From positions 6,835,703 through 6,867,702 of the forward strand of contig CP016211.1 of NCBI GenBank assembly GCA_001931535.1: a stretch of 32,000 nucleotides of DNA. Reading direction: 5' to 3'. A program made the translations under genes and the position numbers. How positions within the stretch are numbered: position 1 is the stretch's first letter; each line of letters begins with the position of its first letter. Under the pieces are notes generated by a model. It was not told the origin of the DNA. It saw only the letters and a program-made list of their open reading frames with translations, and made no database searches. Of the stretch, positions 13,728 to 30,350 are shown piece by piece. This stretch comes from Minicystis rosea (GTDB lineage Bacteria; Myxococcota_A; Polyangia; Polyangiales; Polyangiaceae).

Positions 13728-14071
<344 letters not shown>

Positions 14072-15969: not shown

Positions 15970-17469
15970 CTACCTTGGGCCGCGCACGTGGAACACGAGG
16001 TGCTCGGACAGCCATCCTCCTTTCCACTTTCCCAACACCGTACGACGGCCCTGCTCCAGCGCGTCGGCGTCGGGCATGAGCCCCGCGGTGTGTGTCGGCT
16101 CGACGGCCCGGCCGCCTCGACCCGCGGGCGGGCCGACGTGGACGAGGAGCTGTTCGAGCCCGCCCACCTCGTCGAGCTCGATCTCGACGGGCCATGGCTC
16201 CGAGGCTTTCAGCTCTCGCTCCTGGGTAATCGTGGCAAACGAGGGTGCGTGTCCCGGCCGGTGGGTGACCATCACGACGGTGAGCGTCCCTGCGCATCTC
16301 GCGGTGATCTCGACGCGAATCCGATCGCCGTGAGCAGCCGTGAGCATGGAGCCCGGCCCGACGGGGATCCATTCGCCGTCATCAAAGCCGAGGAGCGTCG
16401 AAGTCGCCGGGGGCCAAATCGCCGTGAGCCCTCCGCTGACGGATCGCACCAGCCAGCTATTTTTCAGCAGCTTGACGTTGTCGGCGACCGTGCGTTTATC
16501 GCTCCGCCCCAGGATGGTTTTGACGTCGTCGAGCGCGACGGGCCCCGGCAACGCGTCGAGGAACCGAGAAGCGAGCTCCAAAGACACCTCGCGAGATGCC
16601 ACCGCCTTGGGACGAGCGCCGGGCGTGGTGAGCTGACGGAGCAGCTCCGCAAAACGCTCCCGCTCGGTCAGTGATGGGCTGACCGCGGGCCCAAAGGGCG
16701 TGAGGCGGCCCGCGCCATCAGCGCTCTTTCGACGCGCCCAATCCTCGGTGATGCTTCGCTCCGCCTCGTCGATCCCAAGCACGCTCTGCTGCAAGAAATT
16801 CCATATCTCCCGCGCGTTCCCCGGCCACGCCAGCGGGTGTCGCGAGAGGCGCTCCACCGCGGCGAGCGCCTCCCCCTTGAACGGCTCCTCGAGCCCCAGC
16901 GCCTCCGCCTGCGCGGCGGCGATCCGCCGCGCCTCTGCTGGGCTCTCCCGCAACGACGGCAGCGTGATTCGAAAGACGTTGATGCGATGATAGAGGTCCT
17001 CCCGGAAGAGGCCTTGATTGCACATCTCGCGCAAATCGCGGTTGGTCGCCGCGACGAGCCGAAAGTTGGCTTTGTGCTCTTCGGTGCTGCCCACGCGGCG
17101 ATAGACGCGCTCTTCGAGCAACGTGAGCAGCTTGGCTTGAACGGCGAGCGGGAGCTCTCCGATCTCGTCGAGGAACAGCGTCCCTCCCTCCGCCTTCTCG
17201 ACGATGCCGCGCGCGTCTTGCACCGCCGTGGTGAACGCGCCCTTCACGTGCCCGAACAGCATGCTGTCCGCAAGCTCGCTCGGAATCGCAGCGCAGTTCT
17301 GGGCGACGAAAGGGCGCTTCGCGCGCGCGCTCTCAGCGTGGATCCGCGCGGCTATCCGCGTCTTGCCCGTACCGGGCGCGCCGGTGATGAGGACATCTCC
17401 ATCCGCTTTGGCCACCTTCTCGATCCGCGCCTCGAGCGCGGGATCAAGAATGAGCTCGGTCGATCGCAC
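15970..17469 (-). CDS. sigma-54 activator (bEBP)-type AAA+ protein with variant GAFTTA loop, no receiver domain and a non-canonical C-terminus
   Basis: Track ORF 15970..17592. Start placed at GTG 17469, preceded by GGAGGAG. Walker A ITGAPGTGKT, Walker B GGTLFLDEIGE, FREDLYHRINV. The GAFTGA position reads GAFTTA (17224..17241). The C-terminal ~230 aa have a wHTH-like stretch (VALDDVKTILGRSDKRTVADNVKLLKNSWLV) and a beta-rich region instead of a Fis-type HTH. Confidence 0.85.
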   Translation of the reverse strand: MRSTELILDPALEARIEKVAKADGDVLITGAPGTGKTRIAARIHAESARAKRPFVAQNCAAIPSELADSMLFGHVKGAFTTAVQDARGIVEKAEGGTLFLDEIGELPLAVQAKLLTLLEERVYRRVGSTEEHKANFRLVAATNRDLREMCNQGLFREDLYHRINVFRITLPSLRESPAEARRIAAAQAEALGLEEPFKGEALAAVERLSRHPLAWPGNAREIWNFLQQSVLGIDEAERSITEDWARRKSADGAGRLTPFGPAVSPSLTERERFAELLRQLTTPGARPKAVASREVSLELASRFLDALPGPVALDDVKTILGRSDKRTVADNVKLLKNSWLVRSVSGGLTAIWPPATSTLLGFDDGEWIPVGPGSMLTAAHGDRIRVEITARCAGTLTVVMVTHRPGHAPSFATITQERELKASEPWPVEIELDEVGGLEQLLVHVGPPAGRGGRAVEPTHTAGLMPDADALEQGRRTVLGKWKGGWLSEHLVFHVRGPR

Positions 17470-17548
17470 GTGATCGCTCCTCCGTTCGGAGCCGGACGAT
17501 ACCAGCCCCGTGCCCGCCGAAGCCTCGAAAATCCTCCGCCTCGAGTCC

Positions 17549-17565
17549 TGCTGCAGATTGCAGCA
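17549..17565. promoter_or_regulatory. inverted repeat TGCTGCA-gat-TGCAGCA in the divergent intergenic region
   Basis: Perfect 7-bp arms with a 3-nt spacer, located between the bEBP-like gene (start 17469, minus) and the heme-oxygenase-like gene (start 17717, plus). Candidate activator or repressor site. Confidence 0.3.
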
Positions 17566-17604
17566 AAACGGCCTGCTGCGAGGCCCCTCCAAACCTCACA
17601 AACC

Positions 17605-17616
17605 AATGAATTCATT
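17605..17616. promoter_or_regulatory. AT-rich perfect palindrome AATGAATTCATT
   Basis: A 12-bp perfect palindrome forming a local AT island within very GC-rich DNA, in the same intergenic region. Confidence 0.25.
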
Positions 17617-17628
17617 ACGATTCAACGT

Positions 17629-17644
17629 TGGTGCGGCGGCTGCT
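17629..17644 (+). promoter_or_regulatory. sigma-54-like -24/-12 element
   Basis: TGGTGCGGCGGCTGCT has GG and GC at the canonical spacing of TGGCACG-N4-TTGC (GG at 17630-17631, GC at 17642-17643). It lies about 75 nt upstream of ATG 17717 and next to a bEBP-type gene. Three non-core positions (C4, A5, T12 of the consensus) deviate. Confidence 0.3.
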
Positions 17645-17716
17645 GTGAGGGCCTCCCGCGGCGGCGAGCACGAGGTCACGAAGGCCTCCTCGCCCGCCGC
17701 AGGGAGATATCGAGTC

Positions 17717-18358
17717 ATGCACGATCTCGTCATCAATCTGGATCGGGAGGTCAACCGGCTCGTCGACGTGCTCGACGAGCACCCCGTCGCGCGGACGCTC
17801 TTCGATGGGACCATCACGGCCGGTCACTATGCGCGCTACCTCGAACAGACGGAGTATTACGTCGGCGTCTCCGACGAGCTGCTCCGCGGCTCCGGCGAGC
17901 GGCTCCTCGCGACGCGCCGGCATCGGCCGCTCGCTCGGCTCCTTTTGCAGAAGTCCAAAGAGGAGAAGGGCCACGATCAGTGGGCGCGGGACGATCGCCG
18001 TGCGATCGGGTTCGGGGCGGCGGGCGTGGGGCCGGGGATCGCCGTGCGAGCGTACATCTACACGCATCGCTTCGAGATGGAGACGGGCTCGGGCGCGGCG
18101 TTCCTCGGCACGGCGTACGTGCTCGAAGCGCTCTCGGCGCGGCGCGCGCCCATCGCGGTGCAAAACCTCCTCGCCAAGAGCCGTATCCCCGGCATCGAAG
18201 GCGCGATTCGCTTTCTCAAAGGGCACGGCGAGGCCGATCAGGATCACATCCGAGAGCTCGCAACCAAGCTGCGCTCGTTCACCGATCCGGAGGACACCGA
18301 GGCCATCCTCCGCTCGGCGAAGAACACCGCACGCTTCTTCCCGGAGTTCTTCTCGTGA
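17717..18358 (+). CDS. heme-oxygenase-like fold protein (possible HO-like di-iron oxidase / iron-containing redox enzyme family)
   Basis: ATG 17717 lies within track ORF 17510..18358, with GGGAGA upstream. All-helical sequence with HYARYLEQTEYYV, EEKGHDQWARDD, AYVLEALS, FLKGHGEADQDHI (E..H-type ligand pairs). Confidence 0.6.
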   Translation: MHDLVINLDREVNRLVDVLDEHPVARTLFDGTITAGHYARYLEQTEYYVGVSDELLRGSGERLLATRRHRPLARLLLQKSKEEKGHDQWARDDRRAIGFGAAGVGPGIAVRAYIYTHRFEMETGSGAAFLGTAYVLEALSARRAPIAVQNLLAKSRIPGIEGAIRFLKGHGEADQDHIRELATKLRSFTDPEDTEAILRSAKNTARFFPEFFS

Positions 18359-19140
18359 GCCCCCGCATTCATGCCTCCGTCGTCGAGGGCCCCGCGGCCA
18401 TCGCCGAGTGCCAGCGCGTTCGACATCAGGTGTACGTCGTGGAGAAAGGGCTCTTGAGCCACGACACCACGGCGCTCGATCGGGAGGAGGACGAGTACGA
18501 CGCTCTCGACACCACCGTTCACCTCCTCGCCCGCGTGGACGGCGAGGCGGTCGCGACGGTGCGCCTGCTCCGCCCGAACCCGCATGTCGCAGGAGCATTC
18601 GGGCAAGCGATCGGCATCGGGCTCGCGGCGCGCTACGACCTCGCGTCGCTCGCGGTGCCGGGCATCTCACTCGCGGAGGGCTCGCGCCTGTGCGTGCTCC
18701 CCAAGCACCGCGGCGGCGCCGTCTTCGGCGCGCTCTCTGCCGAGATGATCCGTGCGGGCCTACGCCTCGGGCTCACGCACCTCGTCATCGCGGCCAACAC
18801 CGAGACCGACTCCATCGAGGACGCGGAGATCGCGTATCGGGTCGCCGTGCGCGACGGGTTCGCGAGCGCTCGCTTCCGGGTCGTCCCGAGGCGCGGGGCC
18901 AGCGCATCCGGGCCGTCGCACCGCGGGATCTACACGGCAGAGGAGCGGGCACGGGCGCGCGCAGGAGACCTCACAGGCCTGCAGCTCCCTCGGATGCTGC
19001 GGACGTTCGCGGAGCACCTCGCGGCGCGGTACATGGGGCCACCCATCCGCGAGAAGGGCTATACGGTCTGCTCGTTGCCCGCCGTGATCGATCTCGAAGA
19101 GGCCTTCCGTACCCAGGCATTCCGCCGCGCGATCATGTGA
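18355..19140 (+). CDS. GNAT-fold N-acyl amino acid synthase / LuxI-like acyltransferase
   Basis: This is the tail of track ORF 16837..19140. GTG 18355 overlaps the previous stop as GTGA. CQRVRHQVYVVEKGLL...REEDEYDALDTTVHLLARVDGEAVATVRLL and EGSRLCVLPKHRG match my recollection of the exosortase-associated N-acyl amino acid synthase / FeeM-type family. Confidence 0.7.
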   Translation: MSPRIHASVVEGPAAIAECQRVRHQVYVVEKGLLSHDTTALDREEDEYDALDTTVHLLARVDGEAVATVRLLRPNPHVAGAFGQAIGIGLAARYDLASLAVPGISLAEGSRLCVLPKHRGGAVFGALSAEMIRAGLRLGLTHLVIAANTETDSIEDAEIAYRVAVRDGFASARFRVVPRRGASASGPSHRGIYTAEERARARAGDLTGLQLPRMLRTFAEHLAARYMGPPIREKGYTVCSLPAVIDLEEAFRTQAFRRAIM

Positions 19141-19181
19141 GCAACGGATTCGCGTCGAGCATCCGGCGTTCGTCCCGTGAT

Positions 19182-20276
19182 ATGTTGCGACATATGAGCG
19201 ATGGTGTGGGGCTCATTCGCAACGAAGAACGCCGGATGATGGCGATCTCCGAGGGGCTGAGCTCCTCGTTCGATGTGGAGATCGCGCTGCGCCGCGGCTT
19301 CGAGGGGATCCTGAAGCTCGTCGGTGCGGACTACGGCGCGGTGGCTCTGGCGGGGCCGGAGCGCGGCGCGCCGCTCCGTTGGCCAACCCCATTGCAAGTG
19401 GATCTTCCGCCCATCTTCCTCAGTACGTACCAGGAGATGAGCGAGCATGATTTCTTGCGCGACGCGGCGATCAAACAGCCCAACATCGTGCTGCGCGATC
19501 ACCAGATGATCCACCGGCGCGGGTTCCAACAGAACCCGTTCGTCATCCGCGCGCGCGAGATCGGCGCGCCGATCGAGCAGGTGATGTCGCTCCTGATCGT
19601 CGTCGAAGGCGTCGGCCTCTGCGGGCTGGCGCTGTACCGCGATCGACAGCGCCCGTTCTCCGCGGACGCACAGCGCATGTTGCAACGGCTCACGCCGACG
19701 CTCAAGAACACCGTCGAGAGATGCTGGCAGTACGGCGAGCTCAGCCGGCAGCGATCGTTAATCGAGACAGTCCTCAAAAAGCGGCACCACGCGATCGTCA
19801 TCGTGCCGCCGTCCAATAGAGAGATCGAGCTCACCCCGGCGGCGACCGAGCTGCTCGACGCGTGGTTCGAACCCGTGGAGCGTCGCGGTGGCGCCCTGCC
19901 TCAACCCCTCCTCGACGCGCTGAAGAAGGCGATGGCCACCGAGGAAAAAGGCCTACCGCCAAAGCCTTGGACGGTGAAGGGGAAGACCGCAGATCTCAAG
20001 GTGAGGTTCTCCCGACACTCGGAGTTGCGCGGCAACCCGTCGTGGGCAATCGAGCTCCAGGAGGAGCTTCACCTCCCTGCATCCTGGCGTGAGCGCCTCA
20101 CGGATCGACAAGCTCAAGTGGCGGAGAAGTTGGTCCTCGGGTGGGAGAGCCGCCTCATCGCCGAAGAGCTGGGGTGCCGCACGCGCACGGTAGAGACGCA
20201 CGTCCAAAGCATCCTCGACGCGCTCGGCATGCCCGATCGCCGAGCGCTCATGCTCCACGCAAAAGACACGGATTGA
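19182..20276 (+). CDS. LuxR-family transcriptional regulator (GAF-like N-terminal domain plus C-terminal GerE/LuxR HTH)
   Basis: This is the tail of track ORF 17805..20276. Start at ATG 19182 or 19194. C-terminal LTDRQAQVAEKLVLGWESRLIAEELGCRTRTVETHVQSILDALGM is a LuxR-type HTH. The N-terminus has GAF-like features: GILKLVGADYGAVAL..., GLCGLALYRD. Confidence 0.85.
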   Translation: MLRHMSDGVGLIRNEERRMMAISEGLSSSFDVEIALRRGFEGILKLVGADYGAVALAGPERGAPLRWPTPLQVDLPPIFLSTYQEMSEHDFLRDAAIKQPNIVLRDHQMIHRRGFQQNPFVIRAREIGAPIEQVMSLLIVVEGVGLCGLALYRDRQRPFSADAQRMLQRLTPTLKNTVERCWQYGELSRQRSLIETVLKKRHHAIVIVPPSNREIELTPAATELLDAWFEPVERRGGALPQPLLDALKKAMATEEKGLPPKPWTVKGKTADLKVRFSRHSELRGNPSWAIELQEELHLPASWRERLTDRQAQVAEKLVLGWESRLIAEELGCRTRTVETHVQSILDALGMPDRRALMLHAKDTD

Positions 20277-20308: not shown

Positions 20309-21541
20309 CTACGCAGTTTGGCCGCCCCGCATCGTGATGACGTGAATGCCCTTGGAGGGCACGTTGAGGTGGCGCGCGAGGCTCGGGATCGGGCTCGCGT
20401 CGTCGTCGCTCGCGAGCAGCACGGCCTTCGCCTTGCCGATGACGGCTTGCTTCACCAGCGGCCAGCCGGCGCCGTGGGAGGTGCCGTTCGTGGCCGCGAA
20501 GATCGGTAAGAGCATGCCGTTCTCGAGCAGTTGCTGCAGCGCCAAGGGATTGAAGCGCACGTGATGGAACCGAAAGGCTTCGGCGACCAGATCCTTCAGA
20601 TCCACCGAGGGATGCTCCGGGAGCGGGAGCACGATCGGCGCCGGAGCGTCGGGCTTGTGCCTGAAATCCTCGGAGCAAGCGTGGGCGATGCGCTTCCGTG
20701 CGTGCCAAACCGCGCGCTGGCTCCAGGCGCGAAGGGAGAGCACGCGGACGTCGCGGTCCGAGAGCGTGCCGCGCAGGATCTCCTCCAGCGGATCGTCGCT
20801 CATGTCGTCGTCGGAGAGATCCTGCGGATCGGGCTCGGCGAGGATCCAGGCTTGTTGCCGGAGCACGAAGCTCTCGAGCTCCGGCGTGCCCATGGGTGGA
20901 AGATCGGTGTACCCCATCGGCCGGAGGTTGGCCTCCCGCACCTTCGCCTCATCGGCTCTGCGCTTCTCCGGTGTCATCGAGGTGAGCACGACGTAGCCCT
21001 CGGCGAACGGCTCGTTCGGCCGCATCTCCAGGAGCCGCTGGGTCACGGCGTCGATGGCTTCTTCGACGGTGTCGTCGGCGACCGCGACCACGTGGATGAT
21101 GCCCACGCCGCGAAAGGCGAGGAACGTGCGGGATCGCTCCCCCTCCGGCGGATCGACGTCATACCCATGTGACACGAAAAACCGCTTCGCGCGCCGCATG
21201 TACACGTCGTGGGGCGACCGCGACGCGCGCCGCGTTCGCTCGTCGGCCTCGCCGAGGGCCTCCGCGAACACGTCGGCCTCCCTGCGATCACCGCAGAGAA
21301 ACTCGGCGTTCTTGAGGAAGGCGCGGAGCGGCGGCTCTTCACCGCCCCGTGGCTGCCACGTGCTCAGCGTGTTGAAGACGACCAGGAGGTGACTCCTCGG
21401 CGCGGAGCGTGATGATGGCGACGGCAGCGCGGAGCGCACGTTCGACGGGAGCACTTCGACGAGCGCCTCCACGTCGAGCGCGCACGCGCAGGCCGCCGTC
21501 ACCAAGCGGTGGATGGTCGCCTCCGAGAGAAACAACGCCAC
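20309..21541 (-). CDS. adaptor (EAD-like) N-terminal domain protein with uncharacterised middle and C-terminal regions
   Basis: Track ORF 20309..21541. GTG start preceded by GGAGG, 19 nt after the ATPase stop. The first ~100 aa are alignable with the CHAT protein N-terminus. No Walker A and no recognisable catalytic motif in the remainder. Confidence 0.8.
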   Translation of the reverse strand: MALFLSEATIHRLVTAACACALDVEALVEVLPSNVRSALPSPSSRSAPRSHLLVVFNTLSTWQPRGGEEPPLRAFLKNAEFLCGDRREADVFAEALGEADERTRRASRSPHDVYMRRAKRFFVSHGYDVDPPEGERSRTFLAFRGVGIIHVVAVADDTVEEAIDAVTQRLLEMRPNEPFAEGYVVLTSMTPEKRRADEAKVREANLRPMGYTDLPPMGTPELESFVLRQQAWILAEPDPQDLSDDDMSDDPLEEILRGTLSDRDVRVLSLRAWSQRAVWHARKRIAHACSEDFRHKPDAPAPIVLPLPEHPSVDLKDLVAEAFRFHHVRFNPLALQQLLENGMLLPIFAATNGTSHGAGWPLVKQAVIGKAKAVLLASDDDASPIPSLARHLNVPSKGIHVITMRGGQTA

Positions 21542-21560
21542 GGCGCACCTCCGTCGGCGA

Positions 21561-24500
21561 TCAGGGACGACCTGCGCTCTCGCGGATCCTCCGCGCGAGC
21601 AGGAGCAGATCGGCGTCCGGGATCTGCTCCGTCGCGAGCACGCTGCGCAGGGTCCTCACGTGGCTCACGTTCCCCGCGCGGACGAGGTGGAACTCTCCCG
21701 TCTCTTGCCCGGGCAGCCGCGAGAGCACGTCGATCGGGCTCTCGCTGACCATGGGCTTGAGCTTGGCGAGCGCCGTCTGCTCTTTCACGCGGCCGAGGAA
21801 CCACGTGCGAATCGTGTCGCGGCAGCGGTAGTCGAGATCGCCGGGGCTCTGCGTCGCGAGCATCACCCCGAGCCCTGCCGAGCGGCCGCGCTTCAGCAAG
21901 CTCTCCATGGGGGCTTTGGTGGCGGGCTGGCGCTGCGCGGGGAGGTAGAGATCCGCCTCGTCGAAGAGGATCGCCGCCTGAAGCTCATTTCGTGGGCGCT
22001 TGCCCGCCCACCGCAGGATCGCGAGGAGGAGCTGCGCGACCCAGAACTGGATCTGCGCGTCGTCGCGGAGGAACTTGGTGCTGATGACCGAGAGCCGCGC
22101 GCGCCCCGGCCGCGCGTGCGCGCCCTTGCCGAGGAACAGATCGATGTCGAGCGGCTCGCTGCCCGCGCCGAAGAGCCGAGAGCCCGTGACCTTCAGCGTC
22201 TCCAGGCCCTGCACGATTTGGGCGAAGAGCTTGATGTCGAGTCTCCCGACCGCCGCCACGAGCTCCTGATCCTGGTCCCCGATGAAGTCGATCAGCGTGT
22301 CGAGCCCGATGTGCGAGATCGTCTGCGAGAGCACGCGAAGCGCCTGCATGAGGATGGCGCGCTTCGTCGCGTCGCCCCCCGTCTGCTTGTAGTTGAGCAT
22401 GTCCCCGAGCGCGTGCGCGGCGAGATCGGCGGCCTCCTCGCGCTCGAACTGCGGCAGCTCCGCGAGCCCTTCGGGCACCACCGAGATCGAGATCGGCCGG
22501 CCCTCCGGGTGGCCCGGCGTGAAGAGCGCGACATCCACGTTCGACAAGAGCCGCTTGCGACGCTCGTCGAGCGCGGCGTCGGCGATGGGCCGTTGCAACA
22601 CCTCCTGCCGCGCGTAGCCCGCGAGATCGCCCTTGCGATCCACCATGATGACGGGCACGCCGCTCACGAGGAGCTGCTCGATCACGCTCAGCGCGACCGT
22701 CGTCTTGCCGCTCCCCGAACCGCCGAGGAACGCTGCATGACAGGTGAGCTCCGCGGGCGTGATGTGCACCGGCTTCGGCGCCACGCCCGCCGTCGTGCCG
22801 ACGAGCGCGCCCGCGACGTCGCTCGAGGGCGTGCTCGGCGTCGTGGTGGCCTTCGGCGTGGTGGGCGCGCGCGGCTCGCTGACGCGGGCCGCGGGGACGG
22901 TGGACGCGGGCGTGCCGAGCCGCTCCACGTGATCGAGATCGAGGATGTCGCGGATCGAGCCGAGGCGCGACATGTGGTTCTCGTCCGCGCGCCACTCGTG
23001 GAAGAACGGCTCGCGATCGTGAAGCTCGGTGAAGCGCTGGAGCGCGAGCATCGCCCGCCACTCCGCGTCCTGGATGATCACGCGGCGCCCGCCGCCCTTG
23101 AGCGCGAGGGCGATCTGCTGGGTGACGGACTTGGCCGCCGAGAACTCGTCGTTGCGCGTGAGCACGAGGATGGGCTGGTTCGCGTCGTCGCGCGCCGCCT
23201 TGGTGTGCTGGGAGATCTGCCGCGCGAGCCAGCCGAAGTTCGCTTGTCTGTTGCAGAGCGCCACATAAAGGTGCTCGCTTCGACGCCGCTCCGGGCCCCA
23301 CGCGGTGACGTGCACGGCGCCGTCGCCTTCGCTCGTGTCGAAGCGGTGCCCACTCTCCAGCTCCTCGCCTGCGCGGACGATCGCCCAGGCGAGCAGCGGG
23401 ACGAGCTCGGCCTCCTCTTCCGACGGCGAGGACGTGCTCGCAGCGAGGAAGTCGTTCCATCGCTGCTCCCATTGCTCCACCGCCTTGAAGCGCGCGGTCG
23501 ACTCGACGGGCGGGGGCTCCGCGATCGTCGAGGGGCGGGCGTCGACGAGCGCGCCGGCCTTCTTGCAGCGCTGCCGGTACTCGCGGCAGCCCTCGATGAG
23601 ATCGCGCGTGCGAAGCTGCGCGCGGGCCTCGATGATCGAGGGAGGGAACGGGTAGAGCGGGTCCCGCTCGTCGAGCTCGGCGCCGGCGCTCGCGTAGAGG
23701 CAGCGCAGCCGCTCGACGACGATGCTGCGCGCCTCGTCGGCCGTGCGCTGGGCCCGCAATTGGATCGGATCCGGATCGTGCTCGATGCGGTCGAGGAGCG
23801 AGCGGTGCAGCGTGCCCTTGAGCTGCCTGTACGCGTCCTCCAAGCAGCTCAGCACGACGATGATGGACGGGATCTCCGCGAGGTCGCCCAGCGTGGTCAT
23901 CGCGTGACGGAACGGCGCGCTGATCGCTTCGAGATCGTAGAGGCCTTCGAGCTGATCGATGCACAGCACGAGCGCCATCGGCGACTCGGGGACGGCGGCG
24001 AGGAGCTTGCCGAGCTGTTGGATCATCCACGCTGGGTGCTCGTCGTGGGTCTTCGGCATGATGCCGCCGATGCGCTTGCGATCCGTCTCGGCGATGTCCT
24101 CGCAGCGGAGGAACTTGAAGATGCGGCTCTTGATCCGCGGATCGGGCCGGTGGAGGAAGAGCAACGCGCGCAGGAGATCGATGTCCGCGTTTCGATAAGC
24201 CCCTTCGAGGAGCCGATCCACGCCGGTGTTGACGAGATCGGCGACCTCGTCGTCGTCGAGCTCGGCGTCATCCCGGAGCATCGCCGCGAGCTTCGGCTCG
24301 AAGGCGCGCGACGCGAGCAGCGCCGCGATCCGCACGAGCCCGGTGCGCATGTCCACGGGCTCGTCGTACGGTTGATCGAGCGAATCGATGAGGTTACTGA
24401 GCACGTAGCGCGCGTAGTTGTTCGCCGCCGACGTGAGCTGCATGTACCCCACGAAACCCACGCGATTCTTGTGCACGTGGCTGCGGAACGCGCGGAGCAA

Positions 24501-24731
24501 ATGCGTCTTACCGGCGCCCGAGTCGCCGAGCAGCAGTAAGATTCGCCCGGAGGTCGCCTCGAAGGGCGTCGTCGCCCGAACGACCAAGCGCTCGAACTCC
24601 TGCCGTGCCTCCGCGTGCACCGAGGGCACGTCGAACGGATCTTCCTTCCAGATCTCGTGTCGATGCTCGACCGAATGGAAGACCTCGGTCGGATCCGTGA
24701 GAAATACGCGTAGGCGCTCGTCCTTCGACAT
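21561..24731 (-). CDS. 1056-aa fusion of two P-loop ATPase modules: N-terminal DnaA/ORC-like-Walker-A NTPase plus C-terminal YjgR/DUF853 HerA-FtsK-type ATPase
   Basis: Track ORF 21561..24731. ATG preceded by GGGGAGGCGGAGAC. Module 1: Walker A LLLGDSGAGKTHLL (24504..24527), Walker B-like ALVLCIDQLE. Module 2: AFLGGSGSGKTTVALSVIEQLLVSGVPVIMVDRKGDLAGYA (Walker A 22698..22724), Walker B AAILFDEADLY (21945..21974), and LATQSPGDLD. A Pro/Thr/Ser linker separates the modules. Confidence 0.85.
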   Translation of the reverse strand: MSKDERLRVFLTDPTEVFHSVEHRHEIWKEDPFDVPSVHAEARQEFERLVVRATTPFEATSGRILLLLGDSGAGKTHLLRAFRSHVHKNRVGFVGYMQLTSAANNYARYVLSNLIDSLDQPYDEPVDMRTGLVRIAALLASRAFEPKLAAMLRDDAELDDDEVADLVNTGVDRLLEGAYRNADIDLLRALLFLHRPDPRIKSRIFKFLRCEDIAETDRKRIGGIMPKTHDEHPAWMIQQLGKLLAAVPESPMALVLCIDQLEGLYDLEAISAPFRHAMTTLGDLAEIPSIIVVLSCLEDAYRQLKGTLHRSLLDRIEHDPDPIQLRAQRTADEARSIVVERLRCLYASAGAELDERDPLYPFPPSIIEARAQLRTRDLIEGCREYRQRCKKAGALVDARPSTIAEPPPVESTARFKAVEQWEQRWNDFLAASTSSPSEEEAELVPLLAWAIVRAGEELESGHRFDTSEGDGAVHVTAWGPERRRSEHLYVALCNRQANFGWLARQISQHTKAARDDANQPILVLTRNDEFSAAKSVTQQIALALKGGGRRVIIQDAEWRAMLALQRFTELHDREPFFHEWRADENHMSRLGSIRDILDLDHVERLGTPASTVPAARVSEPRAPTTPKATTTPSTPSSDVAGALVGTTAGVAPKPVHITPAELTCHAAFLGGSGSGKTTVALSVIEQLLVSGVPVIMVDRKGDLAGYARQEVLQRPIADAALDERRKRLLSNVDVALFTPGHPEGRPISISVVPEGLAELPQFEREEAADLAAHALGDMLNYKQTGGDATKRAILMQALRVLSQTISHIGLDTLIDFIGDQDQELVAAVGRLDIKLFAQIVQGLETLKVTGSRLFGAGSEPLDIDLFLGKGAHARPGRARLSVISTKFLRDDAQIQFWVAQLLLAILRWAGKRPRNELQAAILFDEADLYLPAQRQPATKAPMESLLKRGRSAGLGVMLATQSPGDLDYRCRDTIRTWFLGRVKEQTALAKLKPMVSESPIDVLSRLPGQETGEFHLVRAGNVSHVRTLRSVLATEQIPDADLLLLARRIRESAGRP

Positions 24732-24749
24732 GTCTCCGCCTCCCCTTTT

Positions 24750-25688
24750 TCAGCGATCGTCGAGCCGCACGAAGTGGAACGATGCATTCAGATACGATGT
24801 CTCCGACGCCGCCACGTCTTCACGCGGCATCGCCTGGACGAGGTCCGCGCGGCTCAGCTCGATGAGCTGACGTTGACTCGCCTCGATGAGCCTCCCTTGG
24901 AAGTCCGGAAACGTCATCGCGCCGACGGCGCCTTGACGCTGGAGCTCGTTCCACACGTGCGAGATGAAAACCTTGTTGTCGTGCCACCGCCCGGTCGGCG
25001 ACGCCTGCGCCGCCTTGCGCACGCGCTCCGCGAATCCGGGGAGGCCGTTCTCCGCTTTGAGCACGGGAGTGACTACGGGGACCTCGATGTTCTGGGCCGT
25101 GGCACGCGGCGCCGCGGCGGGCGCATCGCGGAGCAGGAGGCGTTCGGTGAGCGTAGTGAGCGAGAACGTCTCATTCTCCGTCAGTCCCACCATTCTCCGT
25201 GCAAGCGCGATGACGATGTCGGACGGCGAGGGGTCCTTGTCTTTGAACGAGAGCTGGTGGTGCGCGATGATGATCGCTTTGGCGAGCCACGCACCGGCCC
25301 CCGCCTTCTCGATGGTGCCAACCGTGAGCGGGAGCTTCAACTCGCGCAATACGAGGAGCTTCTTCGCCCACTTCCAATCGGTCTTGGTGCGCTTGGGCAG
25401 CTCGGTGACGTCCAACACCGCGAGCGCGCGACGGCGCCCTTCTGCGGTCAGCATCAAGCGGGTGTCCCGCTCGATCAGACCACCTGCCTTGAGCCGCGCG
25501 AGCGCGTCGTTCGCGACCTTCTTCGGATCCTCCGCGGAGGCGTCGAGGAGTGGCTCGAGAGCCTTCGCTAATTCTCCCGTGCTCTGCTTCTTCCGCGGCA
25601 GCACGAGCCACGCGAGCACCACCTTGTCCACAGAGCTCATCTTGAGATCATCCACGTCTTTCTCCTCGTCGGATTCGCGTCCGAGCAC
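24750..25688 (-). CDS. hypothetical protein with N-terminal winged-helix-like region
   Basis: Track ORF 24750..25688. Start at GTG 25688, or ATG 25640. It ends 18 nt before the ATPase start. KVVLAWLVLPRKKQSTGELAKALEPLL...ALARLKAGGLIERD looks wHTH-like. The conserved-looking C-terminus (NKVFISHVWNEL...LIELSRADLVQAM...FHFVRL) matches no family I recognise. Confidence 0.7.
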   Translation of the reverse strand: MLGRESDEEKDVDDLKMSSVDKVVLAWLVLPRKKQSTGELAKALEPLLDASAEDPKKVANDALARLKAGGLIERDTRLMLTAEGRRRALAVLDVTELPKRTKTDWKWAKKLLVLRELKLPLTVGTIEKAGAGAWLAKAIIIAHHQLSFKDKDPSPSDIVIALARRMVGLTENETFSLTTLTERLLLRDAPAAAPRATAQNIEVPVVTPVLKAENGLPGFAERVRKAAQASPTGRWHDNKVFISHVWNELQRQGAVGAMTFPDFQGRLIEASQRQLIELSRADLVQAMPREDVAASETSYLNASFHFVRLDDR

Positions 25689-25726
25689 GGCGTCTCGTCA
25701 CTCCGAGCACGCGAGCTTATCCAAGA

Positions 25727-26671
25727 TCACGCCCGCAAATCATGTACCGTCCGAATCAGGTGGGTTGACGCGGCGTCGACGCCGGGGCGCGTCCAGAGCC
25801 GCGGATTGTCCTGCTCCCCGAGCCCGAGCGCGTCGATCACCGCGCGCGCTTGCTCGAATGCGCTCTCGACCGATCGCCCCGCGCTGATGGATCCGTAGAA
25901 CGCTGCGGCGAGCTGGGTCTCGGCCTTCTCTTCGACGGCCCCCAGCATCCCAATCGCGAAATCGACCGTCGCGACCGCATGCTCCGCGAGCGGCGCGGAG
26001 TGACACCCACCGAAGAAGACCAGGCGGAGATCGTCGCCCGCAGCGCGCAGGAGTGCCTGCATCGCCGAAGGGCGCACGGTCACGGAGCGCTCGTCCTCCC
26101 ATTCGAAGAGCATTCCCCTCCGCGACCCGTGCGCATGAATGTGCATGAGGTGTGGGCGATGCTGGTTGAGGTGCGGGACCAGATCCGTTGGACGCACCGC
26201 CCAGCCGCTCGCGAGATGAATCTGGTCCTTGCCGCCGGCCTTTGCGATCGCCTCTTCGATCGCGCGATACGCTCTGCCAGGGTTGAGCGTGGTTTCGCTC
26301 TCCGGTTGCGCGCTGAGGAACAACAGCCGGAGCGGCGAGGCACCATCTTTATCTCTGGAGGCTCGCGAAGGCCCAAGACGTCTGAGCATGTCGTCGAAGA
26401 GAGCAGCACCGCGACGTCCAGCAGCGAGATGGGCTGCGTTCTCCAGCAGCACGCGGAGAGGCACCGTGCCGTCACGGAGCTGCCCATCCTGACTGAGCCG
26501 GCTGAGCACGCGGAGGAGGCGAATGGCCGGAACGCCACCGACAGGCAACGTGGTCACGTATCCGGGCGAGAGCCCTTCGAGGAGCGCGTCCAGCCCCGCG
26601 TCCCCTGCGAGACCGTCATCGACGACGGCCCGATGCAATGCGCGAAGATCGTCCTGATCGAGCAGCGGCAT
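25727..26671 (-). CDS. adaptor (EAD-like) N-terminal domain fused to a CHAT (caspase-fold) protease domain
   Basis: Track ORF 25727..26701. The GTG at 26701 overlaps the caspase stop as GTGA. I prefer ATG 26671, which is preceded by GGAGGA at 7 nt. CHAT dyad context: PHLMHIHAHGS (His) and LRLVFFGGCHSAP (Cys), then QLAAAFYGSISAGRSV. Confidence 0.82.
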   Translation of the reverse strand: MPLLDQDDLRALHRAVVDDGLAGDAGLDALLEGLSPGYVTTLPVGGVPAIRLLRVLSRLSQDGQLRDGTVPLRVLLENAAHLAAGRRGAALFDDMLRRLGPSRASRDKDGASPLRLLFLSAQPESETTLNPGRAYRAIEEAIAKAGGKDQIHLASGWAVRPTDLVPHLNQHRPHLMHIHAHGSRRGMLFEWEDERSVTVRPSAMQALLRAAGDDLRLVFFGGCHSAPLAEHAVATVDFAIGMLGAVEEKAETQLAAAFYGSISAGRSVESAFEQARAVIDALGLGEQDNPRLWTRPGVDAASTHLIRTVHDLRA

Positions 26672-26697: not shown

Positions 26698-27543
26698 TCA
26701 CCGCGGAAAGAGCGGCAGCGCCGCGAGGTTCGATCGCCCGTTCAAGATGGGGCGCTGCTGGCCCTCGGTCGCCTCGCTCACCGCGCGAGCCACGCGCTCG
26801 TACAAGGCGCCCACACCGATCGTCGCCGGTCCCCCCGAGGGCGGCTGCAGCGCTTCGAGCAGGTGATACGTGAAGAGGCCGTGGCCGAGCGCCTCACTCT
26901 CCCGCGCCACCTGAGCCTCATCCGCTGCCGTGAGGATTACGCTGCCTCGCCCAAGGTCCAACCCACGTAAGGATACGCGCGGAGGCGGCCCATCGCCCAT
27001 GAGCCGGCGCGCAAAGGTCCGTCCCCCGGTCGCACCGCTGAAACAAGTATCGAGGATCACCGCGACGAAGCTCGCCTCTTCGAGGCGCACCATCCAGTCG
27101 GAGAGCCGCAGCTCCAAATCGAGGCCCGTCGCGTGGATGTAAGCATACTCGGTATCATGGAGCGCGAGGAACGCCGAGAGCGAGGCGGTCGCGCTCCGAC
27201 GCTCCGGCGTCCCGTGTGATGCGATGTAGATCAGCACCACGTCTTCATCGCTCACATTCCGACAGAGATCGTCGACCCGCTTCTCGACGTTGCGCAAGGT
27301 CGCCTCGCGGTCGAAGAGCGTATGTATGGAGCGCTCCTCCGGCGCGATGCGTTCGAAGAGCTGCGCCATCGCCGCTGCGTCCTTCCGGGCATAGCGGAGC
27401 CTCCGTATCGACGGGTCCTGAAAATCATCAATGCCTATCGAGAGCGCGTGCAGCACCATCCACCTGCTTTGATTCTCTCGTCGATGGACGAGAGCCCCGA
27501 ACGCAAAGGTCGCGAGCGTAACGGTTCGCGCGGAGGAAAGCAC
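26698..27543 (-). CDS. caspase-family (peptidase C14, metacaspase-like) protease, stand-alone domain
   Basis: Track ORF 26698..27543. Start at GTG 27543, or ATG 27459. HALSIGIDDF. Catalytic His in VVLIYIASHG (27214..27216) and catalytic Cys in AVILDTCFSG (27043..27045, checked on the DNA). GHGLFTYHLLEAL follows. Confidence 0.88.
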   Translation of the reverse strand: MLSSARTVTLATFAFGALVHRRENQSRWMVLHALSIGIDDFQDPSIRRLRYARKDAAAMAQLFERIAPEERSIHTLFDREATLRNVEKRVDDLCRNVSDEDVVLIYIASHGTPERRSATASLSAFLALHDTEYAYIHATGLDLELRLSDWMVRLEEASFVAVILDTCFSGATGGRTFARRLMGDGPPPRVSLRGLDLGRGSVILTAADEAQVARESEALGHGLFTYHLLEALQPPSGGPATIGVGALYERVARAVSEATEGQQRPILNGRSNLAALPLFPR

Positions 27544-27758: not shown

Positions 27759-30350
27759 TCACGACAGCAAATCGCTCGCCGAGAGCGTCGGCGTCATCTG
27801 CTCGCGGAACAGCGCATACGCCGCGCTCCCCGCAGGCAGCACCGCGTCCCCGCGATACAACAGCGCCAGCGACGGCGGCCCATCGGCGCGCGGCGGACGC
27901 GCGCGTGGCTCATCCGCCTCGCCGCGCACGAGCCGGCCGTGGAAGGCGGCCACGTCCTCGTCAGGGCGCCGCACGAACAGCTTCACGTGCTCCGCGTCGC
28001 CGCGCAGGTACACCCGCTGGCAGCGCGCGGCCGCATGGAGCAAACCGAGATCGAGGAGCGACGGCCGCACGCCGCTCTCGAAATATCCCATCATCGCCGG
28101 GCAGATTTTGGTGATCGCCGCGTTCGACGAGGCCACGTTGTTGAGCTGGAGCTGCCCTTTGCTCTGCACGTCGAGCCAGTGCAGCACGCCTTCGCGCACG
28201 TCGAGCACGAGCGGCAGGAACACACCGTTGTCGCCCTGCAAAGCGAACTTCAACGCCACCGTGCGCGGGTCGAAGTGTTGCCCCTCGGTGTCGTCGCGCA
28301 GCATCAGGCCTGCGAAGCCCCGCTCCAGCGCGGCGAACGGCATCCCCGAGTAGTTGTTCACCACCATCACCGCGTAGCGGATCCCCTCCGCGAGCGCGCG
28401 ATCGCGGTGCAGATCGACGAGCTCCGTCGCGCCGTCGGGCCAAGGGGCATCCCGCAAGTCGCCGGCGCTGGTCGCGAGATCGCGACCGTCCTTCCCGACG
28501 GTGCGGAGGTGGTAGTACGAGCACACGCCCACGTGGTTCCAGGCGTCGTCGTAGAAGCCGACGGAGAGATCCAAGTCCGTCTCGTGCCCGCCCTCTTCCG
28601 GCTGGCACCAATGCAAGAACAGCCGCAGCACCTTGCCGGTCGGCACTTGCACGCGCGAACCGCGCGGCAGCGTGACCGCGGAGGGGCTCGCCGTTCGTTC
28701 GTTGAAGGGCGCGACGATGGTCGCAAGCGTTTCGTCGACGATCGCCTCGGCAAACGCCGGCCTCTCGGCGAAGCGCCTGAGGAGCTCGGCCTCGATGGCC
28801 GCGACCGCAAGCTCGATCGCACGCGCCGGAAGAGGCGCACGCTCGTCCTTCGCTGACGGGCCCATCGCCATTTGGCCCTTGGGCCAGTAGACGCGCACCG
28901 CGGCCGGCGCGCGACGCGCCGGCAGCAGGTTCCGCAGCAGCGCGAGCACCGGCGTGGCGAACGCCGGCACGTGCTTCACGAAGGCCGCGATCACGACATC
29001 GACGGCTGCCTCGTCATGGCCCGCGATCCGCAACGCATGATCGAAACGCCGCGCCAGCTCGCCCGGCCTCTCCGCCAGGATCGCCGCCATCGCGCGGCCA
29101 TCCTGCGCGCGCACGGCCGCTTCGAGCTTCGCGGACCAGCCCTGAAAATGCGGCGCAGGCGTCCCATCCGGCGCCTTGCCGCGCACGATCGCGAACGCGC
29201 GGGCCACGTTGGGAAAGCGCGCCGCATGCTCGTGCGGATGCATCAGCTCCCCCACCCACACCCACGTCGAGCGGTGGCGAAGCATGTCCTCGACGAGCCG
29301 ATCCGGCGCGATCCCCTCGAGCAGCGCGAGGAGCGCGCGACGAAGCGGCCGCCCGAGGCGCGCCACCTTGAAGCGGTGCACCTGGAGCGACAGCGACACC
29401 CGCTTCGTCGTCCGGAGCTGCTCCGCGATCTTGCCCGAGAATCGGCGCGCATCCGCCTCGCCCGAGAAAGTCTTCAGAACGGCTGCGGCCTGAAGCGATC
29501 CATCGGCGCCCGACATCACGGCGATGAGGCGCAGCACATCCGTGGCCGTCGTCAGGTGGCGCCGCGCCGCCGGGAGCACGTCGTCCGGCGCGCAGCGCGT
29601 GAGCAGCGTGCCGAAGATCAGGGCCGTGTTCTCCCGCACCGGGATCGACTCCGGCACCCAGCGCAGCACGTTGCCGCGAAGCTCCTCGACGATCGCGACG
29701 AGCGCCGCCCGATCGTCGGGCGAGATCGCTTGCCGGCGCTCGCACAAGCTCGTGAACAGCGCGCGCGCCGCTTCGTGAAAGTCTCCGCCGTCATCGAGGA
29801 GCTGAAAGCGCACCTGCTCCTTGGGCACGCCGCGATCACGCGCCGGCTGAAAGAACGGCGACGACCGATCGACGTGGTGCTCGCAAACCGGGCACGCCGC
29901 GTAGCTCGCCCCATCGAAGCAGCGATCGCAGACCACGTGCTGGCACGGCCGGAGCACGTGCGTCGTCCCCGTGCGACAGCAGAACAAGCACGGCTGCCCT
30001 TCCGCCTGGAGAAAGTGCACGAGGAGCCGCTCCCACCGCAGCGCCGTCGTGTCATCCGGCACGCCCTCGGGAAAGCTCCGAAACAGCGGCTCGTGCTTTT
30101 GATCCGCGCCGCGATGTGCCGCGAGCACCGCGAGCGCCCACGCACGAAATGCCGTCAGCTCATCGAGCGACGTCCGCGTGAAGCGCGCGCGTAGCCGCGA
30201 CGAGATCACGTAGCCGAGCGCCGCGAGCTCGATCTCGCACGCACCGATCGTCGCCTCGGAGAGCAGTGGCCCTTCCGATGCGACGAAGACCGCGCCACGG
30301 CGAAGGAGGAGCAGCTCGCGAATCGTGGTGCGCTCGTCGGCGGTGGGCAT
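27759..30350 (-). CDS. bacterial C3HC4 RING-finger protein with C-terminal TerD-like domain
   Basis: Track ORF 27759..30350 with an ATG start. RING: C121-x2-C124-x11-C136-x-H138-x2-C141-x2-C144-x8-C153-x2-C156 (29883..29990). TerD-like: LRLFLHWCQPEEGGHETDLDLSVGFYDD...SAGDLRDAPWPDGATELVDL...YAVMVVNNYSG. I recall an NCBI family named after MXAN_6230/SCO0854 RING domain proteins; this needs checking. Confidence 0.85.
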   Translation of the reverse strand: MPTADERTTIRELLLLRRGAVFVASEGPLLSEATIGACEIELAALGYVISSRLRARFTRTSLDELTAFRAWALAVLAAHRGADQKHEPLFRSFPEGVPDDTTALRWERLLVHFLQAEGQPCLFCCRTGTTHVLRPCQHVVCDRCFDGASYAACPVCEHHVDRSSPFFQPARDRGVPKEQVRFQLLDDGGDFHEAARALFTSLCERRQAISPDDRAALVAIVEELRGNVLRWVPESIPVRENTALIFGTLLTRCAPDDVLPAARRHLTTATDVLRLIAVMSGADGSLQAAAVLKTFSGEADARRFSGKIAEQLRTTKRVSLSLQVHRFKVARLGRPLRRALLALLEGIAPDRLVEDMLRHRSTWVWVGELMHPHEHAARFPNVARAFAIVRGKAPDGTPAPHFQGWSAKLEAAVRAQDGRAMAAILAERPGELARRFDHALRIAGHDEAAVDVVIAAFVKHVPAFATPVLALLRNLLPARRAPAAVRVYWPKGQMAMGPSAKDERAPLPARAIELAVAAIEAELLRRFAERPAFAEAIVDETLATIVAPFNERTASPSAVTLPRGSRVQVPTGKVLRLFLHWCQPEEGGHETDLDLSVGFYDDAWNHVGVCSYYHLRTVGKDGRDLATSAGDLRDAPWPDGATELVDLHRDRALAEGIRYAVMVVNNYSGMPFAALERGFAGLMLRDDTEGQHFDPRTVALKFALQGDNGVFLPLVLDVREGVLHWLDVQSKGQLQLNNVASSNAAITKICPAMMGYFESGVRPSLLDLGLLHAAARCQRVYLRGDAEHVKLFVRRPDEDVAAFHGRLVRGEADEPRARPPRADGPPSLALLYRGDAVLPAGSAAYALFREQMTPTLSASDLLS

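Follow-up and report, generated by a model that had tools for sequence, protein, structure and literature searches.

An EAD5 adaptor module on a CHAT protease and on an inactive STAND-like protein of one myxobacterial operon

Why should a protease and a second, apparently unrelated protein of the same operon begin with the same module? The question is raised by a 32,000-nucleotide stretch of the Minicystis rosea genome, called the window here (G000:C1:6835703-6867702); the genome is a single contig of 16,040,666 bp with a G+C content of about 65-74%. Five closely spaced genes lie on the minus strand of the window in the order caspase, EAD5-CHAT protease, W, ATPase, and EAD5-X, where EAD5 stands for effector-associated domain 5, W is a 312-aa protein, and X is the remainder of a 410-aa protein. 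The intergenic gaps in this operon are about 18-86 nt, all on one strand. A sequence-only reading of the window had aligned the N termini of the CHAT protease and the 410-aa protein by hand and had named the effector-associated domains (EADs) as the likely identity of the shared module. The features concerned are as follows.

25727-26671, minus strand: EAD5-CHAT protease gene (database start M11 at 26671, longest open reading frame [ORF] to GTG 26701; Pfam)
26366-26671, minus strand: EAD5 of the CHAT protease, ORF residues 11-112 (Pfam, hhalign, BLASTP, genome search)
25772-26335, minus strand: CHAT protease domain (Pfam, motifs)
20309-21541, minus strand: 410-aa protein, EAD5 plus module X (profiles, AlphaFold2 [AF2] model, Foldseek)
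21224-21541, minus strand: EAD5 of the 410-aa protein, residues 1-106 (profiles, model)

The two N termini are homologous. When the full-length proteins were compared by BLASTP, the only significant segment was one of 46 aa with 43% identity (E 0.001), and the isolated domains matched at an E value of 3e-6 (32% identity over 88 aa). Alignment of the two N-terminal family alignments (13 CHAT-family and 8 410-aa-family sequences) by hhalign gave a probability of 98.3% and an E value of 1.3e-14 across 96 columns, with 30% identity and one 3-residue gap. The Pfam EAD5 model (PF19957) recognizes the CHAT protein with an E value of 3.8e-17 (62.8 bits; cut-off, 27) and the 410-aa protein below threshold (E 0.0073, 16.6 bits; same cut-off), and a precomputed PF19957 match exists for six of the seven orthologues of the latter. 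Searched against 1.84 billion representatives, the 410-aa-family profile matched more than 100 proteins over its first ∼105 positions only, a CHAT orthologue among them, and 60 of the 61 scanned proteins that were matched solely through this N terminus carry Pfam EAD5. The reverse search, with the CHAT-family EAD5 profile, recognized the 410-aa-family N termini of other clusters at E values of 1e-12 to 5e-6. Judged from these sequence comparisons, the similarity is far beyond chance. Thus, the pairwise and profile alignments that the sequence-only reading had proposed as a check, run here, gave significant profile-profile similarity and placed both N termini in EAD5, which bears out that identity (Pfam, hhalign, orthologue scans). 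Its coordinates and quoted peptides are exact (CHAT ORF residues 37-106 and 410-aa ORF residues 24-96), and, as it had stated, the same module is shared by a protease effector and another protein of the operon; the latter is not an effector. The JGI annotation of a CHAT orthologue already reads "Effector-associated domain 5."

EAD5 occupies about 100 residues at the extreme N terminus of both proteins, and its conserved residues are hydrophobic, proline, or glycine. The AF2 model of the 410-aa protein shows it as a six-helix bundle (residues 7-19, 24-29, 33-38, 48-60, 71-83, and 88-106; pLDDT 83-98), and, as modeled, EAD5 is a small non-catalytic six-helix adaptor. The 2020 EAD paper (PMC7159879) predicted a mixed alpha+beta fold, whereas the model here is all-helical. 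In that paper, Kaur, Burroughs, Iyer, and Aravind (eLife 2020) predicted homotypic, Death-domain-like coupling from the presence of an EAD on both an effector and the core of one operon. EAD5 is listed among the effector-recruiting EADs (PMC7159879; PMC8195603, eLife 2021), and a 2026 preprint (10.64898/2026.10.19.760177) places it among the Death-like adaptors. The answer that we consider fairly probable is that the operon encodes an immunity- or programmed-death-type conflict system in which EAD5 couples the CHAT protease to a dead NLR-like scaffold, the 410-aa protein. This estimate is for the reading as a whole, which builds directly on the homology and domain composition, on which catalytic motifs are intact and which are lost, on the conserved gene order, and on the alternative architectures of relatives.

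The first of these architectures to consider is that of the 410-aa protein itself. The sequence-only reading had called it otherwise unassignable, and this part did not stand: behind EAD5, the protein has two folds, assigned by AF2, Foldseek, and alignment, which together are named module X here.

20906-21214, minus strand: restriction-endonuclease-like (REase-like) alpha-beta3-alpha-beta fold of the 410-aa protein, residues 110-212 (AF2, Foldseek)
20327-20794, minus strand: inactive STAND/AAA+-like nucleotide-binding fold of the 410-aa protein, residues 250-405 (Foldseek, alignment)

The AF2 model, made from a 23-sequence alignment, has a mean pLDDT of 89.4 and three parts: EAD5 (1-106), the alpha-beta3-alpha-beta unit (110-212), and a Rossmann/P-loop-like alpha/beta domain (250-405). 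Foldseek comparison of the full-length model with the PDB, which is dominated by the STAND part, gave Avs4 as the top match (8dgf_B; E 1.3e-4, probability 1.00, 344 columns), followed by CED-4, Apaf-1, the NLRP3 NACHT, plant NLR resistosomes, and ORC/Cdc6. The unit at 110-212 is matched by the REase-fold protein EndoMS (Foldseek probability 1.00, 103 columns). At the level of sequence, no Pfam family other than EAD5 matched the 410-aa protein, and a PDB sequence search with its family returned nothing meaningful. Both folds of module X have lost their catalytic motifs. Across the family, the REase-like unit lacks conserved catalytic residues of the acidic or lysine type, the invariant columns being just G, F, V, and I, and the window protein has RAWSQRAVWHAR at the Walker A position and LLPIFAATNG at the Walker B position. 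P0035 alone in the family alignment keeps Walker A (GEYGVGKS) and Walker B (LLFDGMDE). It is a 1431-aa protein consisting of EAD5, the REase-like fold, a STAND with intact Walker motifs, pentapeptide repeats, and a WD40 propeller; the 410-aa protein stops at residue 410 without sensor repeats. Being an intact STAND with sensor repeats and the same EAD5, P0035 shows the ancestry of the scaffold; it has the appearance of an active, sensor-equipped ancestor form of the dead 410-aa protein. As modeled, the latter is EAD5 plus a dead REase fold plus a dead STAND fold, and it represents a new lineage of inactive STANDs in which a dead REase fold comes first. The 410-aa-family profile also matches large, STAND-size ORFs in other genomes at E values of 1e-6 to 1e-9.

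Relatives of module X show what can take the place of the adaptor. EAD5 stands in front of module X in 14 of the 17 representative clusters, and in the other three (P0037, P0038, and P0040), which have no EAD5, a C-terminal TIR domain is fused directly to it. The 14 include P0033, with the architecture EAD5-X-caspase-bDLD3, and P0035. Kaur et al. (PMC7159879) defined EADs by this kind of substitution, in which most members have the adaptor and others a fused effector.

The distribution of EAD5 in the genome narrows the choice of partners. When all six reading frames of the 16-Mb genome were searched with the 410-aa-type N-terminal profile, exactly four places were found: the 410-aa protein itself (1.6e-41), the CHAT N terminus, a gene for an EAD5-trypsin protein, and a gene for EAD5 alone. 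Of the three matches other than the 410-aa protein, the CHAT copy ranks first, by a narrow margin (1.5e-7 versus 5.5e-7). No hidden EAD5 was found in the ATPase, W, or the caspase with two EAD5 profiles and the six-frame genome search, so within the cassette EAD5 is carried by the CHAT and module-X proteins only. Among the EAD5 proteins of the genome, only the 410-aa protein has neither an effector nor a bare tail (the rest are the CHAT, trypsin, and 182-aa stand-alone proteins), and it is therefore the only candidate hub. The EAD5-trypsin-like protease gene and the gene for the 182-aa EAD5-only protein, which has a low-complexity tail, are at loci L003 (G000:C1:2018589-2021900) and L004 (G000:C1:1326157-1329468), and no NTPase adjoins them within the 3.3 kb examined. 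Both proteins may be additional clients of the 410-aa scaffold or may regulate it.

The remaining three genes of the operon are as follows.

26698-27543, minus strand: C14 caspase-like peptidase (Pfam)
24750-25688, minus strand: protein W, 312 aa (no family match)
21561-24731, minus strand: two-motor ATPase, 1056 aa (Pfam, PADLOC, motifs)

Both proteases of the operon retain their catalytic motifs. The CHAT domain matches Pfam CHAT above the cut-off (E 5.4e-08), its catalytic His (HAHG, residues 189-192) is kept in 14/14 family members, and its Cys motif (FFGGCHS or FFAACHS; Cys233) is kept in 12/14. Orthologues of the protein are 70-85% identical and start at MPL(L/I)DQ. The caspase likewise matches Pfam Peptidase_C14 above the cut-off (E 4.3e-13) and has the His-Gly/Cys dyad (ASHG at 108 and DTCFSG at 165); its score against the NCBIfam "caspase, EACC1-associated type" (86.8 bits) is below that model's cut-off of 140. 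From these motifs, the CHAT protease and the caspase are both clearly predicted to be active. The caspase has no adaptor domain, and its true start is probably M29, at about 27459. A CHAT relative in another setting is P0027, an EAD5-CHAT-TIR protein that is 53% identical to the window CHAT protein (L033:1129-8348). Its gene is divergent from genes for a 1231-aa CHAT protein and a 315-aa protein, and neither module X nor the two-motor ATPase is present on this 9-kb contig.

The ATPase carries two P-loop motors. Its N-terminal half is an AAA_16/STAND/BrxD-like P-loop (Walker A GDSGAGKT at 69 and Walker B CIDQLE at 257), and its C-terminal half is HerA/FtsK-like (GGSGSGKT at 670 and LFDEAD at 922); Walker A and B of both are invariant in relatives. 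The Pfam matches are HerA_C (1.4e-10), AAA_22 (1.3e-09), and AAA_16 (8.9e-09). PADLOC recognizes the HerA-type half only (mad8, 7.7e-19, and HerA models), with the first half weakly BrxD. W has no Pfam, NCBIfam, or PADLOC match. Its AF2 model is poor (pLDDT 60.4), Foldseek found weak PadR/MarR/DtxR-type matches with no E value below 0.1, and a sequence profile search of the PDB gave DtxR-type matches at about 0.2 only. With low confidence, W may be a winged-helix-like protein.

W and the ATPase travel together. A homologue of W is immediately upstream of the ATPase in 9/9 related loci, and the pair is conserved across three phyla. Seven loci were found by a pattern scan with the ATPase alignment: two in Polyangiaceae and one each in Chondromyces apiculatus, a Haliangiales metagenome-assembled genome (MAG), and a Gammaproteobacteria MAG, plus two in Gemmataceae MAGs. 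Module X is present in the Polyangiaceae loci only. The gene directly preceding W was scanned for domains in four of the five distant loci (all but the short contig L028), and in each of the four it codes for a ∼350- to 400-aa protein with a DUF559/REase_MTES_1575 nuclease domain at its C-terminal end. These partner genes are at L025:5481-6935 (Chondromyces), L026:5758-6945 (Gammaproteobacteria MAG), L027:5713-6915 (Fimbriiglobus), and L029:5973-7028 (Haliangiales MAG). PADLOC has no model for the DUF559 partner proteins, and the DUF559 protein, W, and the ATPase form a candidate three-gene system without a PADLOC match. The DUF559 nuclease gene occupies the position that EAD5-CHAT has upstream of W, which fits effector swapping. 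The N-terminal part of the DUF559/Vsr-like partners has a PTLS.L.GP strand-loop resembling a degenerate P-loop. Homology of module X to the N-terminal ∼280 aa of these proteins was considered and rejected (hhalign probability, 0.4%).

The complete cassette is stable in gene order, and module X is rare. The same five genes in the same order are found on metagenomic contigs L001, L002, and L031, and L032 shows the last four, ending at the contig end on the 5′ side of the cassette. These loci have a common downstream neighborhood (LuxR-type, FeeM-like acyltransferase, haem-oxygenase-like, and sigma-54 activator genes) and differ in their upstream flanks, and the 410-aa protein is 55-66% identical among them. 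Sampling of the family turned up module X in 2 of 190 other genomes. In the sample of the order, the remaining 398 genomes had no copy besides those of the window genome and these two, and a 400-genome sample of the phylum gave one other full-length match. No further loci came from a contig scan of genomes with alignment A1 or from a metagenome scan with the X-TIR proteins, and a third word-indexed search added P0047 only. In G230, one of the two positive genomes of the family, the locus consists of W, the ATPase, and an EAD5-like-X gene, with an Rhs toxin gene upstream on the opposite strand. The caspase gene, present in L001, L002, and L031, is absent from it. Elsewhere in its genome, G230 has 12 EAD5 proteins (trypsin, three times; TIR; PNP-type phosphorylase; nSTAND1; and TIR plus EAD1). 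One of these loci, L020 (G230:C11:197177-200446), encodes a >1000-aa protein with EAD5, TIR, and EAD1, i.e., two adaptor types in one chain.

How might these parts work together? The core would be a winged-helix-like W and the two-motor ATPase, in which a switch-type P-loop is fused to a HerA/FtsK-type P-loop. This core, on sensing an invader or a damage signal, would drive assembly or remodeling of the dead-STAND scaffold. The EAD5 modules of the clustered scaffold would then bind the EAD5 of the CHAT protease like with like, and the protease would be activated by induced proximity. The adaptor-less caspase could serve as the second protease in a cascade. Physical binding between the EAD5 modules of the CHAT and 410-aa proteins is what we infer from their sequences, and to this the scheme adds a presumed direction of signaling, a presumed trigger, and putative substrates of the proteases.

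Several observations weigh against coupling of the protease to the scaffold through EAD5. The scaffold EAD5 is divergent, its identity to each of the three other genomic copies being 32-34%, and the CHAT EAD5 is closer to the trypsin and stand-alone copies (38%) than to the scaffold copy (BLASTP). The hallmark of EADs that adjacent copies are closest is at best marginal here (genome profile search). The five loci with both EAD5 genes amount to about one evolutionary event, because they share the same neighborhood in related Polyangiaceae. No protease adjoins the W-ATPase-X core of G230, which means that protease linkage is not obligatory. Finally, no PADLOC system matches W or the scaffold.

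Three other explanations have to be weighed with these points in mind. The 410-aa protein could be a dead decoy that holds EAD5-CHAT inactive through EAD5-EAD5 contact until the ATPase core releases the protease on a trigger, in the manner of CARD-only or FLIP-type inhibitors. That both enzymatic folds of the scaffold are dead agrees with such a role, as does the need of the cell to keep two active proteases harmless, and the stand-alone EAD5 protein of the genome could act likewise. However, relatives of module X with fused effectors (TIR; caspase plus bDLD3) or sensor repeats suit a platform better, and G230 keeps X without adjoining proteases, so a decoy is considered unlikely. Alternatively, the two EAD5 modules may not bind each other, each docking instead on a common third partner, e.g., the ATPase or W. 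This would suit two copies that are only 32% identical and not clear mutual nearest relatives, and W and the ATPase are constant in all loci. The distant W and ATPase, however, work with a DUF559 protein that has no EAD5, and therefore this pair need have no EAD5-binding surface. EAD5 also occurs with many unrelated cores (nSTAND1, TIR, and kinases), which favors self-association over one fixed heterologous partner. A third partner is thus regarded as quite unlikely.

The shared EAD5 could also be a relic of domain shuffling, the caspase and EAD5-CHAT genes being an independent module that landed beside W-ATPase-X. G230, with its three-gene core free of proteases and its 12 EAD5 proteins scattered over the genome, is what such a history might leave behind, and so is an EAD5-CHAT-TIR relative in an unrelated context; moreover, all loci with both EAD5 genes are orthologous. 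Yet order, strand, and short gaps were kept while the 410-aa protein diverged to 55-66% identity, and the five genes stay together despite differing upstream flanks. In addition, the genome has no other core-type EAD5 protein with which the CHAT, trypsin, and solo copies could pair. Independent arrival is, on balance, very unlikely, and recruitment of the CHAT protease to the dead scaffold through EAD5 remains the preferred reading.

A broader and distinctly tentative proposal, possible rather than probable, concerns the core itself. W and the ATPase may be the core of an undescribed, widely scattered defense or cell-death system with exchangeable effectors. Most lineages would attach the DUF559 nuclease protein, and one myxobacterial lineage would have rebuilt the core into a "split apoptosome." By this is meant a dead NLR-like platform whose Death-like adaptor would recruit a CHAT/caspase cascade, with nucleotide hydrolysis left to a separate motor protein.

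Comparison with known systems shows which parts of this arrangement have precedents. The cassette follows the EAD principle in that EAD5 is on a core component (X) and on an effector (CHAT) of one cassette (window, L001, L002, L031, and L032). It also does so in that the same core module is elsewhere fused to an effector in place of the EAD (the X-TIR proteins) or appears as EAD5-X-caspase-bDLD3. The described EAD cores are the MoxR-vWA ternary systems (VMAP, iSTAND, iSTAND2, TERNS3, FtsH, and beta-propeller), the GAP1 GTPase, NucA-trypsin, EACC1, and TIR-ParA (PMC7159879; PMC8195603). In contrast, the window operon has no MoxR, vWA, GTPase, or ParA, and its core is W and the fused switch-type/HerA-type ATPase. 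A MoxR or vWA domain was found neither in any of six window genes (Pfam) nor in the called genes of L001, L002, and L031. Among these cores, iSTAND and iSTAND2 resemble the 410-aa protein in being inactive STANDs with an N-terminal EAD, proposed to be the constant sensing or coordinating component that recruits effectors, but the 410-aa protein has an extra dead REase-like fold before the STAND and no linked MoxR-vWA pair. Avs4 (PDB 8dgf), a STAND anti-phage sensor, has an Mrr/REase-type fold and then a STAND nucleotide-binding domain in the same order. It differs in that its nuclease and ATPase are active and a large sensor follows at the C terminus, whereas the 410-aa protein no longer has the catalytic residues of either fold, is free of sensor repeats, and carries EAD5 in front.

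By analogy, the arrangement resembles the Apaf-1 and CED-4 apoptosomes, where the N-terminal six-helix adaptor of a STAND platform matches the adaptor on a caspase-fold protease. Apaf-1/caspase-9 and CED-4/CED-3 recruit through CARD-CARD contacts, to which the proposed EAD5 activation may be likened, and a second caspase-fold protease would be available for a cascade. The difference is that the nucleotide site of the window platform is dead, and hydrolysis would come from the separate two-motor ATPase. Complexes of HerA with a partner (SIR2-HerA, DUF4297-HerA, and HerA-NurA) are similar in that a HerA/FtsK-type P-loop is encoded beside an effector gene, and the partner in the distant loci carries a nuclease domain (DUF559). 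Unlike in these complexes, the HerA-type domain follows a second, AAA_16/BrxD-like P-loop in a single fused protein, there is no stand-alone HerA gene, and the partners are W and DUF559 or EAD5 proteins, with no SIR2, DUF4297, or NurA.

No described system of this composition was found in the literature searched, and EAD5, HerA, and Minicystis are not mentioned in one supplement of PMC7159879. The EAD5 domain and the EAD coupling principle are already known (PMC7159879; PMC8195603). The difference lies in the core, i.e., a new inactive-STAND lineage with a dead REase fold and an as yet unstudied ATPase with two motors, whose putatively winged-helix-like partner W accompanies it and which is nuclease-linked elsewhere. 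EADs are proposed bacterial counterparts of the Death, CARD, and Pyrin adaptors, and no experimental test of an EAD5 pair was found in the literature searched. The operon is compact, with five genes, two proteases, and one adaptor pair with one silent partner, and is therefore a clean system for testing like-with-like adaptor activation of a bacterial caspase-fold protease. It would also place EAD coupling outside the MoxR-vWA and GTPase systems in which it was defined. Finally, the cassette provides a first functional handle on the two-motor ATPase and its partner, a pair found in at least three phyla.

The surroundings of the operon were also inspected. Directly upstream of the caspase, at 27759-30350 on the minus strand, is a gene whose 863-aa product has a prokaryotic RING finger (Prok-RING_4, E 1.2e-15) and a full-length match (905 bits) to NCBIfam NF041916, the MXAN_6230/SCO0854 RING family. 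This gene adjoins the cassette in the window but not in L001, L002, or L031; it was rejected as a member of the system and is probably unrelated to it. A tmRNA gene (tag ANDNALALAA; 13728-14071, plus strand) is about 6 kb from the end of the cassette, and no integrase was noticed near it, no dedicated search having been made. In the block at 15970-20276, a sigma-54 activator gene points away from a haem-oxygenase-like gene, a FeeM-type N-acyl amino acid synthase gene, and a LuxR-type gene. L001, L002, and L031 have the block in synteny, and it is the constant neighborhood downstream of the cassette. An SbcC/SbcD-like pair (SMC_N/AAA_23 and Metallophos) lies between the EAD5-X and LuxR-type genes in L001 (11211-16048) and L002 (11303-16152); the window, L031, and L032 do not have it there.

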